Shown: positions 59,355 through 64,000, counted from the stretch's first letter. The stretch is DNA of 64,000 bases from Candidatus Ryanbacteria bacterium CG10_big_fil_rev_8_21_14_0_10_43_42 (GCA_002793915.1 PFEF01000008.1:18159-82158); one strand, 5' to 3'. Numbers and translations are program-made. The notes: generated from the sequence alone by a model not told the origin.

Positions 59355-59376
59355 TACATAAGAAAGTGAAAAAGAA

Positions 59377-59407
59377 ATACCACCCCTCAAGGGCGGTATT
59401 TCTTTTG
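59377..59407 (+). terminator. rho-independent terminator after exonuclease gene
   Basis: ATACCACCC-n5-GGGCGGTAT (one mismatch) then TTCTTTTG. Confidence 0.55.
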
Positions 59408-59553
59408 AATCTTAATAATGTATGGTGGGCGATCATCTTTTACCTAGAACTGAATTATTACCTAAATACCACGAAAAGTACAATTTAGTGTTGATTTGCA
59501 ACGAAATTGATACATTAATTAAAAGAATTGCTTGCAGAAATTAATAGACAAAC

Positions 59554-59587
59554 AAAAAAGCACCACCAAGGCGGTGGTGCTTTTTTT
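59554..59587. terminator. strong bidirectional rho-independent terminator
   Basis: AAAAAA-GCACCACC-aaggc-GGTGGTGC-TTTTTTT; 6 nt downstream of stop of minus-strand gene 59594-61132. Confidence 0.7.
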
Positions 59588-59593
59588 AGATGG

Positions 59594-61132
59594 CTATGAC
59601 CCCAATAATATTCGTAAGTTTGCTGACATTGAGACCATAATGTTATCCATCATCTCATATGCATCTTCATTGGTAGAATATTTAATTTTTGCTTCTCCCA
59701 TTGAATAAGCCAAGAATGATACTGCGTTTAGCAGGTCTTTATTATCCTTGTTTTCAAGGATAAAACGTCGGTAAAATGGATGGGCAATATTCCATAGAAT
59801 AATTGTCTTTTTACCTTGTTTTTCTACGTCAAATATAATTCCCGCGCTTCCAAAATCATGTAATTCAAACTTTGCTATTTCAGGAAGAGATGGGCGTCCT
59901 CTGTGTTTATCTGTCTCCGGCGTTTTATTTTCTTCTTTCTCTCTTGCTTTTCGTGTTCTTTTTACAGGTATTTCCTTTTTTGCGTCAGACACATCAAGGA
60001 GTTTTCTGCTTTGAGCTATAGCTTTTTCAGCATCACTAAAGTTTAAATCTTCTGACTCTTCTACAGAATGGATTTTTCGGAAGCGGTTCCGAAGAGTATC
60101 GATTTGCGGCAATACATCATTTTTCAACTTGTCTAACACCGCTTGTGATGGTTTCACACCATGTTTGGAGTAATTAACACCCATAGCCTGATCTAATGTT
60201 CCCGGGAAGAATATCTCAACTCGTACTCGGTTTAGATCATTGTGTTTTGAGAAAATATTTAGCGTTTCCCCACCAGAGATTTGTCTATGGTTCCTAATTA
60301 GATAAAATCCTTGATTTGTTTGATTGAGTTTAAGTTTCCTGTTTATTGATTGGTCAAACATGGGAAGAACATGGATCTTAACAACTATTTCTTCTTCTCC
60401 AATGTTTGGAACTTTAATCGAAAACTTTTCACTACTGTAAAGTTCAGACCGTTTTTTATATTCATCCACCAAAATACCATCTTGCCACATGGGATCCACA
60501 ATATCAACTTTAGAGTTGTTAACTGTAATAACTTTGCCCGCGCGGAGAAACTCTCTGAATACTTCACCAAAATACTTACTTACCCTGTCAGAAAGCTCAT
60601 TAATATCCGTATAATTAACCTGATCACACTTTTCAATGATTAGTACCGTTCCGCATTTATCCAACCCATATCCTGCCGCAATACGCATATCCTCTTTGGA
60701 TGATTTCTCCCTGTAAACCTTAAAGTCATTAACTTCCGCCATATAATCCAAATCCATAATACCGGTGAGCATATCTTGTCCTTCCTCTTTGGTGTATATA
60801 ACAACCCTTCTTCCTATGGATATAGATGCGGTTACAAGCCCCATCCCAAACCTACCAAGGTCTGACTGGGTATCACGGGAAGTTAGAGATCCTAATTTTA
60901 GTGCTTGTTCTAATACATCTTCACTCATCCCGATCCCGTTGTCTGCAATAGATACCCGATAATCCTCCCTGTTTTTTTCAATTTTTATGTCTATAAGACT
61001 GGCGTCAGCATCAAGCGAATTATCTACCAAATCAGCTAAAGCGATGCTGTTATCATAGCCGCTAAATCGAAGGGACTCCATCAGTTTAGAGGCGTTAGGA
61101 GTATTATTCCTAGAGAAGTTTTTGTATTCCAT
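59594..61132 (-). CDS. stand-alone GHKL (Bergerat-fold, MORC/HATPase_c_3-like) ATPase with ~350-aa C-terminal domain of unknown function
   Basis: 512 aa; N-box LADLVDNSLDA, G1 IADNGIGM, G2 GRFGMGL in first 110 aa; followed by AT-rich islet. Confidence 0.65.
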   Translation of the reverse strand: MEYKNFSRNNTPNASKLMESLRFSGYDNSIALADLVDNSLDADASLIDIKIEKNREDYRVSIADNGIGMSEDVLEQALKLGSLTSRDTQSDLGRFGMGLVTASISIGRRVVIYTKEEGQDMLTGIMDLDYMAEVNDFKVYREKSSKEDMRIAAGYGLDKCGTVLIIEKCDQVNYTDINELSDRVSKYFGEVFREFLRAGKVITVNNSKVDIVDPMWQDGILVDEYKKRSELYSSEKFSIKVPNIGEEEIVVKIHVLPMFDQSINRKLKLNQTNQGFYLIRNHRQISGGETLNIFSKHNDLNRVRVEIFFPGTLDQAMGVNYSKHGVKPSQAVLDKLKNDVLPQIDTLRNRFRKIHSVEESEDLNFSDAEKAIAQSRKLLDVSDAKKEIPVKRTRKAREKEENKTPETDKHRGRPSLPEIAKFELHDFGSAGIIFDVEKQGKKTIILWNIAHPFYRRFILENKDNKDLLNAVSFLAYSMGEAKIKYSTNEDAYEMMDNIMVSMSANLRILLGS

Positions 61133-61312
61133 TTTATTTGACCTCGATAGCTATTAACCACCAAGATCGGTTAATTTTAATAAACAAAAACAGACCACAT
61201 AGAGCGTCTGTGTACGTTAAAAATATTATGGATCCATAAGCTTTTAGATTAGGCCTCGATAACGCCGTAGCGCCACCAAAACACTGCTTATAATTTAATA
61301 TCTCCAGTATAC

Positions 61313-61651
61313 ATGATGAGATTTTTTTGTCAAGCGCATGTGATCATGTATAGTGAAGACATGTTTAGAAACGAGGAGAAATCTGAACACAAAGACCTGC
61401 CCACCACACTAGAGTCCTTGGACACGGGTGATGGGCTATACATTGCTATTGGTGATCCATTGCCCAACGGAGACGTAAAAGTAAACTACTTTTACAGCAA
61501 TGAGATACCTAAACTGAAAGCAAAAGTTGGAAATACTGTGCGCCAAATGAAAATCTCGTATGACTCTGTTGCGTACGACAACAATCAGTTGCTACATCTT
61601 TTATTTGGAAAAACAAAAAAGTTTCGTGAACAAGTTAAAGAAAAAAACTAA
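61313..61651 (+). CDS. hypothetical protein in AT-rich islet
   Basis: 112-aa ORF, no motif; possibly degenerate. Confidence 0.3.
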   Translation: MMRFFCQAHVIMYSEDMFRNEEKSEHKDLPTTLESLDTGDGLYIAIGDPLPNGDVKVNYFYSNEIPKLKAKVGNTVRQMKISYDSVAYDNNQLLHLLFGKTKKFREQVKEKN

Positions 61652-61826
61652 CCCGGATAATGTTTTTGTTGACAGCAAAGAACTTGTTGAGTTTCTTCAT
61701 GGTGCCATTCGCGCCAAAGGAAGAACGACGCAACATACGCAATTTTCAGTAAGAGAAGCGATATTTCTATCCGAACTTATTTTACACAAACAAAACGATC
61801 TAGTCCTATTTGTAATTGCGGACTAT

Positions 61827-62045
61827 ATGGCTGATAACTACCACAGTAGAGTTTCTGTATTTGCAAATGGTGCTTCATTCAGACGATTGCAATTCTTCAA
61901 ACAATTTCTTTTGCATAAAGGAAATGCTACTAAAGCGGCAATTGGTGCTGGCTACAGTCCAAAATCAGCCAAGCAACAGGGTCATAGATTACTTCGTTGG
62001 ATACAAAATAATCAACACAAATCAGTATCTGGGTTTCCTCTATAA
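61827..62045 (+). pseudogene. fragment resembling N-terminal HTH of phage terminase small subunit
   Basis: LQFFKQFLLHKGNATKAAIGAGYSPKSAKQQGHRLL matches Terminase_2-type HTH; ORF stops ~35 aa later (full-length ~150 aa expected). Confidence 0.4.
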
Positions 62046-62132
62046 GTCATCAAAAGTAAGCATTTTACTCGAACCAATAGAAACTCTTGCCTAAAGTAAG
62101 CCGGATCCACTGATTTGCTATCAATGGCATAT

Positions 62133-62429
62133 TTAGTGATTTTGTTCTTTGGCTTTACTCGAAAAAGTAATCCCTATCCCAAGCAACACGATGAATACAC
62201 TCAATTGAACCAGCCCATGGAGCGAGAAAGCCTCAAAAATGAAATTAAGTATATAACCAAGATAAGGAATAAACACTGTCCAAGTTGGGGGAGTAGGGAT
62301 CGCAAAACCAAACAAATCTCTTGCAAACGGCTCATCAGGTTCTTTAGAAACTATCATTGAAAAACTTATGAGGAAAACGATAGCAATCCCGATAAAAAAA
62401 TTGCCAACAATTCTATTTAATTTTAACAT
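62133..62429 (-). CDS. small membrane protein (98 aa, 3 TM)
   Basis: hydrophobic ORF; start codon abuts repeated leader element copy 1. Confidence 0.45.
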   Translation of the reverse strand: MLKLNRIVGNFFIGIAIVFLISFSMIVSKEPDEPFARDLFGFAIPTPPTWTVFIPYLGYILNFIFEAFSLHGLVQLSVFIVLLGIGITFSSKAKEQNH

Positions 62430-62510
62430 ATTTTCGCGTAGGTTTTAAGCTAATAATTGCTCACACAAAAAGTCCGCATAACACACATCGACAATTCTTT
62501 TCGGATACTG
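62430..62510 (-). repeat. repeated 5' leader element, copy 1 (~80 nt)
   Basis: TTCGCGTAGGTTTTAA..ACAAAAAGTCCGCATAAC..CACATCGACAATTCTTTTCGGA shares ~75% identity with 63317-63400. Confidence 0.5.
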
Positions 62511-62558
62511 CGGGATATTCCAAAGAATAACTTATTGATTACATACTTTCAGGCATCA

Positions 62559-62963
62559 CTACGATAACCACACAAGGCGCACAAATATGAGATAACCAAG
62601 CAGTAGAATTACCGTTATTGGTGTAAAAACCAACATCATTCGCCATTCTTTTTTATCTTTTGTTTTGTCTAAACGCATAAGCGATATTGTGCCGGTGGCA
62701 ACAGCAAAGATCATAAATACGATGGTCAGATACAAAGACGCAACAAAAAGGTTCTCGGAAGCAAAGAACAGGAAATCATCCAAATCTTCATGCCTTTCTA
62801 ACCAGTCTGACAAGTATTCATACCTGTATACAAAATCATATAACCAGTCAAACGACGACGGCAAAAATGTTCCTATCCCCACCCACAGTAATCCAATAAC
62901 ATACAGCACAATGAAAACGAGAGTAAGTTTTGAGTATTTATTTGTTGTTGAAAACATATTCAT
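62559..62963 (-). CDS. polytopic membrane protein (134 aa)
   Basis: hydrophobic ORF 8 nt downstream of 62972-63316 gene (operon). Confidence 0.45.
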   Translation of the reverse strand: MNMFSTTNKYSKLTLVFIVLYVIGLLWVGIGTFLPSSFDWLYDFVYRYEYLSDWLERHEDLDDFLFFASENLFVASLYLTIVFMIFAVATGTISLMRLDKTKDKKEWRMMLVFTPITVILLLGYLIFVRLVWLS

Positions 62964-62971
62964 GGTTTATA

Positions 62972-63316
62972 TTATTTTCCTCTAATAAACAAAGTTTTTA
63001 TCCTATGGCGTAGTAGTATCAAGATCCCCAAAATTATGAAAACGAGCCTCAACAATGGTTCGTCAGTAATATCACCCCCTACTTTTCCAAGAAAAACGCC
63101 GGGAAGTAAACCAACTACTACCAGCAAATAACCAAACAAGTCCCATTCGGAGCGATTATTTTTTTTGTAATTTTCTAGCGACTCTTTGTCAGTTATTGTA
63201 GACTGAAAATAATCTTCTCGCGCTTTTCCTTTTAGAAAAGGTGGGATTGGCTTGCCTACCAACTTAAAGTTAGGTTTGTACAGCTCATCCTGCTTTTTTT
63301 CGTTTTGATTTTCCAT
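62972..63316 (-). CDS. small membrane protein (114 aa)
   Basis: start MENQNEKK at 63314-63316 abutting leader copy 2; longest ORF (to 63442) would read through the repeat. Confidence 0.45.
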   Translation of the reverse strand: MENQNEKKQDELYKPNFKLVGKPIPPFLKGKAREDYFQSTITDKESLENYKKNNRSEWDLFGYLLVVVGLLPGVFLGKVGGDITDEPLLRLVFIILGILILLRHRIKTLFIRGK

Positions 63317-63400
63317 GTTCGCGTAGGTTTTAACTATTAAAAGTTGGCCACAAAAAAGGCCGCACAACTCACACCGACAATTCCTTTCGGAATTGTCCAG
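63317..63400 (-). repeat. repeated 5' leader element, copy 2, containing perfect 9-4-9 palindrome GACAATTCC-TTTC-GGAATTGTC (63376-63397)
   Basis: direct comparison with 62430-62510. Confidence 0.5.
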
Positions 63401-63418
63401 CACCCTTTCGGGTACTGA

Positions 63419-63465
63419 CCTACGCGAATAAGTGGCGGTCATGCGACCATCTTTATTCGCGTAGG
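63419..63465. repeat. 13-bp perfect inverted repeat CCTACGCGAATAA-n21-TTATTCGCGTAGG
   Basis: direct reading; shares CGCGTAGG core with both leader copies. Confidence 0.5.
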
Positions 63466-63523
63466 ATTTGATACCATACCTTTAGAAATCTAAAGGGTTA
63501 GGTTTGTAAGTATAATTATATAA

Positions 63524-64000
63524 TCACAATTGTGATAAGGGAAGCTGATCTTCTTTCTTCAAGCTCATTTCTCTATAGATCTTCTTTAAGCTTTCCTTCG
63601 CATATCTTATAAAAGTATCATATTCTTCTTTTTGCCTATCAACTTCTTTCAAGAATGCCTCATACATTTTAAGAGACCCCGGCATGTTGTTATTCTTTTC
63701 GTACATTAAGCCTTGTACAAAAAGAAGCTCTTTTTTGCTTTGATATTTTTTATAGTATTCAGCTAAAAACACTAATACACTATTGAGCGTAAAATCCGTT
63801 ACATATCCATCAAGTGCCTTCTTATACAAATTAAACGATCTTTCAAAATTGCCTTCAAGTAAAACAAGAAAGGCTTCGCTATATCTCCAAGCACTATCAG
63901 GTAAACTACTGTTCCTATTTTGTTTTTTAATTTGTTTAATAACTTTTTTTGACCCCAACACATCTCCTTTTTCAAAAAGGTATAAGGCTTTGCTTAAACG
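63524..64000 (-). CDS. TPR-like helical-repeat protein, 5' end likely beyond window
   Basis: ORF remains open to window edge in same frame (..LSKALYLFEKGDVLG upstream of annotated Met); repeated A/Y/L helical pattern. Confidence 0.4.
   Translation of the reverse strand, partial: RLSKALYLFEKGDVLGSKKVIKQIKKQNRNSSLPDSAWRYSEAFLVLLEGNFERSFNLYKKALDGYVTDFTLNSVLVFLAEYYKKYQSKKELLFVQGLMYEKNNNMPGSLKMYEAFLKEVDRQKEEYDTFIRYAKESLKKIYREMSLKKEDQLPLSQL

Follow-up and report, generated by a model that had tools for sequence, protein, structure and literature searches.

A MORC-like ATPase, putatively of restriction or defence type, as cargo of a small tRNA-Val-associated integrative element in a Candidatus Ryanbacteria genome

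The end of a 64,000-nucleotide (nt) stretch from Candidatus Ryanbacteria bacterium CG10_big_fil_rev_8_21_14_0_10_43_42 (GCA_002793915.1, PFEF01000008.1:18159-82158; this whole stretch is called the window) raises the question of what a solitary gene for a 512-amino-acid (aa) GHKL ATPase is doing in an AT-rich islet (59594-64000), in the company of a terminase-like helix-turn-helix (HTH) gene and several small membrane-protein genes. The explanation we prefer, with a probability of about 0.6, is that the ATPase is a restriction- or defence-type clamp carried as cargo on an intact integrative element of ~7.5 kb.

The ATPase gene (59594-61132, minus strand) encodes the motifs LADLVDNSLDA, IADNGIGM and GRFGMGL, as the original prediction had it, and its product matches Pfam HATPase_c_3 at 7.7e-27. 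The part of ~350 aa beyond the GHKL domain, first taken as one uncharacterised C-terminal domain, is indeed present and can now be divided: residues ~1-330 comprise GHKL and S5 transducer, followed by a long helix (330-374), a disordered K/E/R-rich linker (387-415) and an Hsp90-like C-terminal domain (416-512). In a comparison with known proteins (two values per row), the rows were led by MORC3 (24.2, 305), MORC2 (23.9, 318) and the SMCHD1 ATPase (23.5, 322), with TRAP1 (18.0, 302), Topo VI-B (17.4, 335) and MutL (17.0, 279) below them, and residues ~1-330 are therefore assigned as a MORC-type GHKL + S5 transducer module. The C-terminal domain, small and of alpha/beta type, appears to resemble that of Hsp90 and not MutL. 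A profile search of 1.84 billion proteins with these 95 residues returned 363 representative clusters, in which the domain is always terminal, in ~480-565-aa proteins or fragments. No nuclease domain was found in the 512-aa ATPase.

Alignment of 56 family sequences (A1) gave 50 invariant positions spread over the full length of the ATPase. P12 and N13 are among them yet lie upstream of the start chosen in the public 495-aa annotation, which shows the 512-aa start to be the right one. The GHKL motifs for nucleotide binding are all four present and invariant (D34/N38/D41, D64xGxG68, G93xxGxG98 and T162), and in the S5 domain K323 is invariant too. As catalytic base, GHKL motif I usually has Glu (E29 in E. 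coli MutL); the general-base position here is held by an Asp, D34, in all 56 family members and in a Burkholderia plasmid homologue.

Family-model scores place this predicted ATPase outside the named families: 121.7 bits for MzaB (cut-off 850), 48 for the BbrUII/HgiDII restriction enzyme (550), 31.7 for MutL TIGR00585, over residues 34-79 only (180), 22.9 for Topo VI-B (274) and 19.8 for HtpG (371). MzaB, reportedly the GHKL ATPase of the MzaABCDE anti-phage system of Gao et al. 2020, was the top-scoring match in the defence libraries (PADLOC 1.6e-30, residues 8-295 of 512; NCBIfam NF041932 2.7e-35, residues 18-355) and has the N-terminal GHKL+S5 module in common with the window ATPase. Membership in MzaB is ruled out by the bit score and by the absence of Mza partners. 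From eukaryotic MORC2/MORC3 and SMCHD1 the window ATPase differs in having no CW, coiled-coil insertion or hinge domains and in its small Hsp90-like C-terminus, and identity is 14-18%.

Bacterial MORC/paraMORC ATPases were found in restriction-modification neighbourhoods, and a prediction of 2008 made them components of restriction systems and ancestors of the eukaryotic MORC silencers; one of them, paraMORC1, has a conserved C-terminal extension and co-occurs with HNH endonucleases (Iyer, Abhiman & Aravind 2008; PMC2292703). The window ATPase is like the paraMORCs in its GHKL+S5 module with intact motifs and in a conserved extension past S5; the neighbourhoods of homologues, though not that of the window gene, are rich in cytosine methylases, Vsr, MutH-like/HNH nucleases and helicases. 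It differs in that the gene is solitary inside a mobile islet. The class (MORC/paraMORC) is an already known, experimentally neglected one, here with an Hsp90-like tail and no partner.

Statistically, the homologues are linked to DNA-modification and nuclease genes. Six loci that we looked up had (i) a MutH-like gene, a C5 methylase and the ATPase, with a serine recombinase adjoining; (ii) a C5 methylase and the ATPase within a housekeeping region; (iii) the ATPase with Vsr, C5 methylase and MutH-like genes; (iv) the ATPase alone; (v) the ATPase with a MutH-like gene and an N6/N4 methylase; and (vi) the ATPase with a second GHKL paralogue beside a dndBCDE cluster. Neighbours were then clustered over 85 loci, and hidden Markov model searches were made in the 51 loci with at least 3 kb of flank. 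DNA methyltransferases occur in 18/51 (16 of them within 1.5 kb), large serine recombinases in 10/51, and MutH-like genes, the second GHKL paralogue and a ~400-aa protein with a sigma-70-region-4 HTH in 5/51 each; about 24/51 have none of these classes. No single partner family appears in more than 10/51 loci, and none is universal. Distant, full-length homologues (27% identity, E 1e-39, C-terminal domain included) are found on conjugative plasmids, in operons encoding a type II endonuclease, Dcm, Vsr, the ATPase, an HNH endonuclease, a DEAD-box helicase and an EcoRII-N-domain protein, a setting like those that Iyer et al. reported for MORC and paraMORC ATPases; 22 IMG/VR contigs encode relatives of the ATPase. 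A tRNA gene lies at the island border in five of the recombinase-linked homologue loci. None of the islet genes is common to the homologue loci, distant recombinases excepted, which indicates that the ATPase moves between unrelated elements.

Two of these neighbours have some peculiarities of their own. In 5-6 loci the second GHKL paralogue (~585 aa; L016 5121-6872, and L058, L076, L091 and L097) precedes the ATPase homologue by ~0.9-1.1 kb, in one case beside a dndBCDE/IscS phosphorothioation cluster. The C-terminal motif of this paralogue, NTAHPDF, resembles WNIAHPFY of the window ATPase; it had no PADLOC match. In 5-8 loci (L038, L042, L043, L077 and others) the gene just downstream of the ATPase, and on its strand, encodes the ~400-aa protein, which has its sigma-70 region-4 HTH at the N-terminus. 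This protein recalls the sigma-like MzaA and likewise had no PADLOC match. Homology between it and the HTH protein of the islet was considered and rejected, no similarity being found.

On what is the window gene carried? GC content is 0.369 in 59594-64000 against 0.435 (sd 0.014) in the rest, as measured in 273 overlapping 4.4-kb sliding windows of the first 59 kb, none of which is as low; the compositional break that had been proposed is real. Every gene of the element, ATPase through recombinase, has a GC content of 0.34-0.40. The islet starts ~160 bp before the 59594 first given for it, near 59434, and continues for ~3 kb past the window end. The identical ATPase was found on contigs from five samples, and contig L001, which overlaps the window exactly, extends it; window-equivalent coordinates are 71082 minus the L001 position. 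The element extends from about window 59434 to window-equivalent 66983-67038, ~7.5 kb, with the borders fixed to within ~55 nt. The window segment is the distal half of the element, whose large serine recombinase would target the 3' part of tRNA-Val(tac).

Past the window end the gene order is a 467-aa protein, a 63-aa HTH_17 protein and, on the opposite strand, a 624-aa large serine recombinase. The HTH_17 protein matches an excisionase profile (phrog_66, 2e-6) and PADLOC mad1 (1e-8). The recombinase is intact (Resolvase 7.8e-31, Recombinase 1.5e-18, Zn_ribbon_recom 3.4e-4, the last at 21.4 bits and so under its 25.3-bit cut-off), contains the catalytic-serine motif in its N-terminal region (YIRVSTEEQ), and matches the integrase phrog_95 at 3e-93 over residues 4-578. 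The final ~45 codons of its reading frame cross tRNA sequence antisense, the 3' end overlapping tRNA-Val(tac). There follow the intact tRNA-Val(tac), tRNA-Phe and then host genes of normal GC (HSP20, PrsW, class-I tRNA synthetase).

At the distal border, the last host sequence is the terminator hairpin of a convergent RNase_H_2-like host gene (59370-59406; inverted repeat I4, 17-bp stem and T-run). It is followed at 59423-59433 by a tRNA 3'-end-like relic, ATCGCCCACCA in the minus-strand reading, which repeats 9 nt of the tRNA-Val 3' end exactly and agrees at 10 of 11 positions with the tRNA fragment adjoining the recombinase (CGCCCACCA / ATCGCCCACCA match the tRNA 3' ends there). We tentatively take it as an attachment (att) repeat; the 9-mer alone has a BLAST E of 0.67 and taken singly could be chance. 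Then come a conserved element-end sequence (59473-59531, minus strand) and, after the ATPase gene, the bidirectional intrinsic terminator that had already been noticed, which spans 59554-59586 with a perfect 14-15 bp stem and an A-run and a T-run on either side. The candidate attP junction would join window ~59434 to GAGATGATTTTTCAC beside the recombinase, and the candidate empty-site junction would join the tRNA end to TACATTATT.

The closest genome that we found, Candidatus Ryanbacteria MHNO01000005, has an RNase_H_2-like protein 73% identical to that of the window genome. It conserves the order Mur ligase, SpoU, RNase_H_2-like, and has only a 130-aa open reading frame (ORF) before tRNA-Val(tac), whose strand agrees with that in the window genome. 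With no islet between these flanking genes, the segment is not syntenic in all relatives. No islet protein was found at this locus or at those of seven other relatives.

A sister element was found in a Candidatus Levybacteria genome and many metagenome contigs (L172-L176) through a 61%-identical homologue of the islet HTH protein. Compared with the window element, its recombinase is 69% identical, its HTH_17 70%, its HTH protein 61% and its p112, a small ORF product described below, 49%; the cargo is not shared. The layout is common to both: a minus-strand cargo gene, the plus-strand small ORF and HTH protein gene, several minus-strand cargo genes, HTH_17, and the serine recombinase overlapping tRNA-Val(tac); the sister too has a LOOT RNA. 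The ~59-nt end sequence at window 59473-59531 is common to both elements (~80% identity over 59 nt to the equivalent end of L172), as is GAGATG(A/T)TTTTTCA directly after the tRNA end on the recombinase side. A direct repeat of 22 nt, corresponding to the T-loop and acceptor part of tRNA-Val, bounds the sister element; the att-like repeats that were proposed as a check at the islet borders are clear in the sister, and of 9-11 nt only in the window genome. A two-gene module (L172 8126-9926) sits in the slot held here by the 467-aa membrane/TPR protein, encoding a 393-aa ABC-type ATPase with PADLOC matches to PDC-M07A/AbiLi/HEC-01A/AriA (1e-36 to 7e-27) and a 202-aa partner with a weak HEC-01B match. 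Another related element has a C5 methylase with a 314-aa gene in the slot occupied here by the ATPase, and further cargo of related elements includes copper-resistance genes and a HerA-type ATPase with a Pif1 helicase. The excisionase-like gene, the intact recombinase at tRNA-Val(tac), the absence from a relative and the sister element all bear out the mobile character first suggested for the islet; its supposed decay is contradicted by backbone genes that are intact and conserved between elements. Judged by its sequence, the islet is a live-looking, intact member of a family of small cargo-swapping elements in candidate-phyla-radiation bacteria. It is like the serine-integrase islands and prophages inserted in tRNA genes in its Resolvase/Recombinase/Zn-ribbon recombinase, excisionase-like HTH, insertion at the tRNA 3' part, short far-end repeat, low GC and accessory or defence cargo, and differs from them in its very small size (7.5-8 kb), the absence of phage or conjugation genes, and a backbone with a LOOT RNA and a terminase-type HTH protein.

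The tRNA genes at such borders show further oddities. In L001 3800-4100 (window-equivalent 66982-67282) the intact tRNA-Val(tac) is flanked by debris of a second tRNA, whose 5' half, GGGTGATTAGCTCAGTTGGCTAGAG, and matching 3' half are both present. The same tRNA-Val(tac) is enclosed by 16-bp perfect inverted repeats, TTAACGTTACACTGGT / ACCAGTGTAACGTTAA, and a hairpin unit ending CGTTTACACTTT is present twice. The debris looks like scars of repeated integration into the tRNA-Val gene, the order of events not being worked out. At L027 2196-2364, one of the ATPase homologue loci, a serine-recombinase ORF overlaps an intact tRNA-Glu(ttc), as recombinase and tRNA overlap here, and a pseudo-copy of the tRNA-Glu 5' half, which departs from the tRNA sequence within the anticodon loop, lies 40 nt upstream; tRNA scars beside a recombinase with ATPase cargo are here seen a second time. 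In the Ryanbacteria relative (L017 11560-11859), a tRNA-Phe-like gene is split, ~240 nt lying between the anticodon region and the 3' part; ARAGORN made no call, and the intervening sequence may be an intron. The serine-recombinase gene itself was left uncalled in the public JGI/NCBI annotations of several assemblies (L001 3795-5957; L174 6390-8326; L175, L176) and called by ENA and Logan, so that annotation-based screens would miss the integrase of these elements.

How might the ATPase act? The backbone consists of the recombinase, the excisionase-like HTH_17, the pair of p112-like and 139-aa HTH proteins and the LOOT leader, with slots between for cargo that differs from element to element; the far-end slot here holds the 512-aa MORC/MzaB-like ATPase, most likely an ATP-gated homodimeric clamp. 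We favour a clamp because MutL, MORC and Hsp90 share the plan. By this analogy the protein would be a constitutive dimer, its two chains joined at the Hsp90-like C-terminal domain, the GHKL+S5 heads would close on ATP binding, and the Lys/Arg-rich linker and inner face would hold DNA. Alongside DNA methyltransferases and MutH-like/HNH partners, in complete systems, the clamp could couple recognition to a nuclease or helicase. The lone ATPase here may work with unlinked partners, by itself (e.g. trapping or compacting DNA), or be idle. That it might be a defence factor was part of the original prediction, and this stands by association, being made plausible by the remote MzaB similarity, the methyltransferases in 18/51 loci, the plasmid Dcm-Vsr-HNH-helicase operons and the defence-like cargo of the sister; no partner accompanies it here.

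Several observations count against a defence clamp on an intact element. Roughly half of the homologue loci lack any recurrent partner, so the defence interpretation draws on a minority of contexts. Neither the 64-kb window nor the islet has a methyltransferase (three classes tested) or a recognisable nuclease, and a restriction-type mechanism would be without its effector here. The Asp in place of Glu at D34 may make hydrolysis slow, which would suit an ATP-binding switch rather than a motor. As for mobility, the distal att repeat has a length of 9-11 nt only (chance E ~0.2-0.7), and we found neither an empty-site variant of the window's own species nor an excised circle, all contigs with the flanking RNase_H_2-like gene carrying the islet as well. 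A search of a paper library found no experimental evidence for the ATPase family and nothing specific on its defence role or on LOOT.

Other explanations of the gene can be offered. The ATPase could be a self-sufficient, nuclease-free immune or exclusion factor, an Hsp90-style dimeric clamp that traps or compacts incoming DNA with ATP, and so a bacterial counterpart of eukaryotic MORC silencing spread on tRNA-targeting islets; that no partner gene occurs in more than about a fifth of the loci is compatible with such a single-gene unit, and still we think it unlikely. The ATPase might instead serve the mobile element, by condensing DNA or adjusting its topology during excision and integration, by stabilisation (addiction, exclusion of competitors) or by anti-defence. 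Its place in serine-recombinase islets in 10/51 loci, five of them beside tRNA genes, its position adjoining the divergent control region of the element and the missing nuclease partner would all fit, but sister elements with the same recombinase have unrelated genes in its slot and do without it, so it is not needed for element function, and many homologues sit in chromosomal housekeeping contexts, with a methylase only or alone; we regard this role as doubtful. Or the gene is an orphan of a multi-gene restriction-type system, Mza-like or Dcm-Vsr-HNH-helicase-like, and functionless here. Relatives do occur in multi-gene operons, and neither islet nor window holds a partner; yet the ORF is intact with all 50 family-invariant residues kept, solitary or methylase-only arrangements are common in the clade, no partner family is universal, and the element is compact with little non-coding DNA, so that we find loss of function improbable. 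Least credible is a housekeeping enzyme of MutL/GyrB/HtpG type, which we give almost no weight: the GHKL fold is shared and there are weak matches to the MutL, Topo VI-B and HtpG models, but those scores are far under their cut-offs, there is no MutL C-terminal domain, and the gene lies in a low-GC mobile islet missing from a relative. Model scores and context thus rule this identity out; the ATPase does not group with housekeeping MutL/GyrB, such clustering having been set beforehand as a check.

A different alternative concerns the islet as a whole, namely that it is a decayed prophage or a satellite resembling phage-inducible chromosomal islands, with the terminase-like gene a packaging remnant. 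This gene (61626-62045, plus strand; the longest ORF starts at 61560) encodes a 139-aa backbone protein with a C-terminal Terminase_2-type HTH. The Terminase_2 match (E 6.8e-8; 33.7 bits, cut-off 26.1) covers profile positions 8-41 of 141 and residues 112-146 of ORF 61560-62045(+), and phrog_17390, a terminase-small-subunit PHROG, matches at 1.7e-10. Together with an integrase, an excisionase-like gene, the small element size, and GHKL homologues and LOOT RNAs on IMG/VR contigs, these matches make a phage origin worth considering. The similarity to terminase is nevertheless confined to the 34-residue HTH at the C-terminus of the protein and is no whole-profile match. The 23 homologues of the protein measure 94-204 aa, most of them 127-145 aa, with the HTH near the C-terminus, and sit in serine-recombinase elements with varied cargo; such a stable length indicates that the protein is complete and represents its own family, and not the truncated terminase small subunit it was first taken for. 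Neither the window element nor its sister has capsid, large-terminase, replication or primase genes, and no structural gene accompanies the HTH protein in the element. We consider a phage or satellite remnant very improbable, and the truncated-terminase, decayed-prophage reading was rejected after the search for HTH homologues and the finding of the sister elements.

The locus is a compact and clearly delimited case, one 512-aa gene and no nuclease on an element of 7.5 kb, among whose relatives the slots stay fixed and the cargo changes, and this makes the function of a lone bacterial MORC directly testable. To our knowledge, almost no bacterial MORC/paraMORC ATPase has been studied experimentally, the GHKL-fused Shedu nucleases excepted. 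The comparison also defines a small mobile-element family in candidate-phyla-radiation bacteria, a group in which little is known of either mobile elements or defence, and gives the orphan LOOT RNA a reproducible place, in front of cargo genes as their 5' leader.

Between ATPase and HTH genes lies a divergent control region (61133-61362), in which both strands carry promoter-like sites (11/12 and 10/12 matches); 180 nt separate the ATPase gene from the p112/HTH operon, which is read in the opposite direction. A 25-nt inverted repeat (I2, 61298-61322 / 61338-61362; 80% complementary, 15-nt spacer) overlaps the divergent promoter-like sites and is a candidate operator at 61298-61362, possibly for the 139-aa HTH protein. 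The small backbone protein p112 (61313-61651, plus strand) has a homologue in the sister element that is equally placed and 49% identical, and no Pfam, PHROG or PADLOC match was found for p112. Then follow the three small hydrophobic proteins of the original prediction, which are borne out as three minus-strand ORFs with 2-4 predicted transmembrane (TM) segments. By hydropathy, the 98-aa cargo protein (62133-62429) has 2 predicted TM segments and no family matches, and the 134-aa cargo protein (62559-62963) has 3-4, with sub-threshold family matches only. For the 114-aa protein (62972-63316; 2 predicted TM) the mechanical ORF reaches 63442, and the duplicated leader described below sets the start at ATG 63316. 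The gene at 63524-64000 (minus strand), earlier read as TPR-like, is the C-terminal third of the 467-aa protein (L001 6155-7558), running on to window-equivalent 64927; the product has two N-terminal TM segments and weak TPR-like repeats, all below Pfam cut-offs, and had no PADLOC or PHROG match.

The 5' leader of the membrane-protein operon (63376-63504, minus strand) is a LOOT RNA, matching Rfam RF03000 in full (model 1-121; 86 bits against a gathering cut-off of 46.4, E 5.6e-16), and its minimum free energy fold retains the LOOT structure (z = -7.6). In 2017 Weinberg et al. reportedly described LOOT from uncultivated phyla, where it was entered as a candidate small RNA without an assigned function. 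The duplication of leader repeats noted at the outset is real, ~76 nt at 62430-62505 and 63315-63391 with 87-95% identity, and part of the repeat belongs to the LOOT RNA: the second copy (62430-62505, minus strand; repeat families D1 and D2) consists of the LOOT 3' hairpin half, a U-run, a spacer and the start-site box UUAAAACCUACGCGAAAAU. A copy of the 5' strand of the long LOOT stem P2, AAAUCCUACGCGAAUAA, stands directly before each of the two start codons (…AAAACCUACGCGAACAUG and …AAAACCUACGCGAAAAUAUG), which makes the P2 3' strand complementary to the start regions of two membrane-protein genes. The LOOT of an IMG/VR contig (L160 7770-7981) has the same arrangement of stem and start site with a different sequence, CCACUGCGAC, and the two loci together represent a covariation of LOOT with the downstream start site. 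As a general rule for LOOT the stem copy at the start codon was rejected, being seen in 2/6 loci and not in the four others, the sister element included.

The six loci compared were window 63376-63504, L127 5922-6043, L132 2421-2538, L160 7852-7981, L163 4386-4511 and L172 7901-8020. In all six the LOOT is followed by a G/C hairpin and U-run and then, 44-72 nt downstream, by the start of a same-strand ORF, which in four encodes a membrane or secreted protein. Three IMG/VR contigs have a LOOT, as do two related mobile elements. The window RNA is thus like RF03000 in its full-length match and differs in this leader-like position, here and at the five other loci, which suggests that LOOT acts in cis as a leader of mobile-element cargo genes rather than as a free small RNA.

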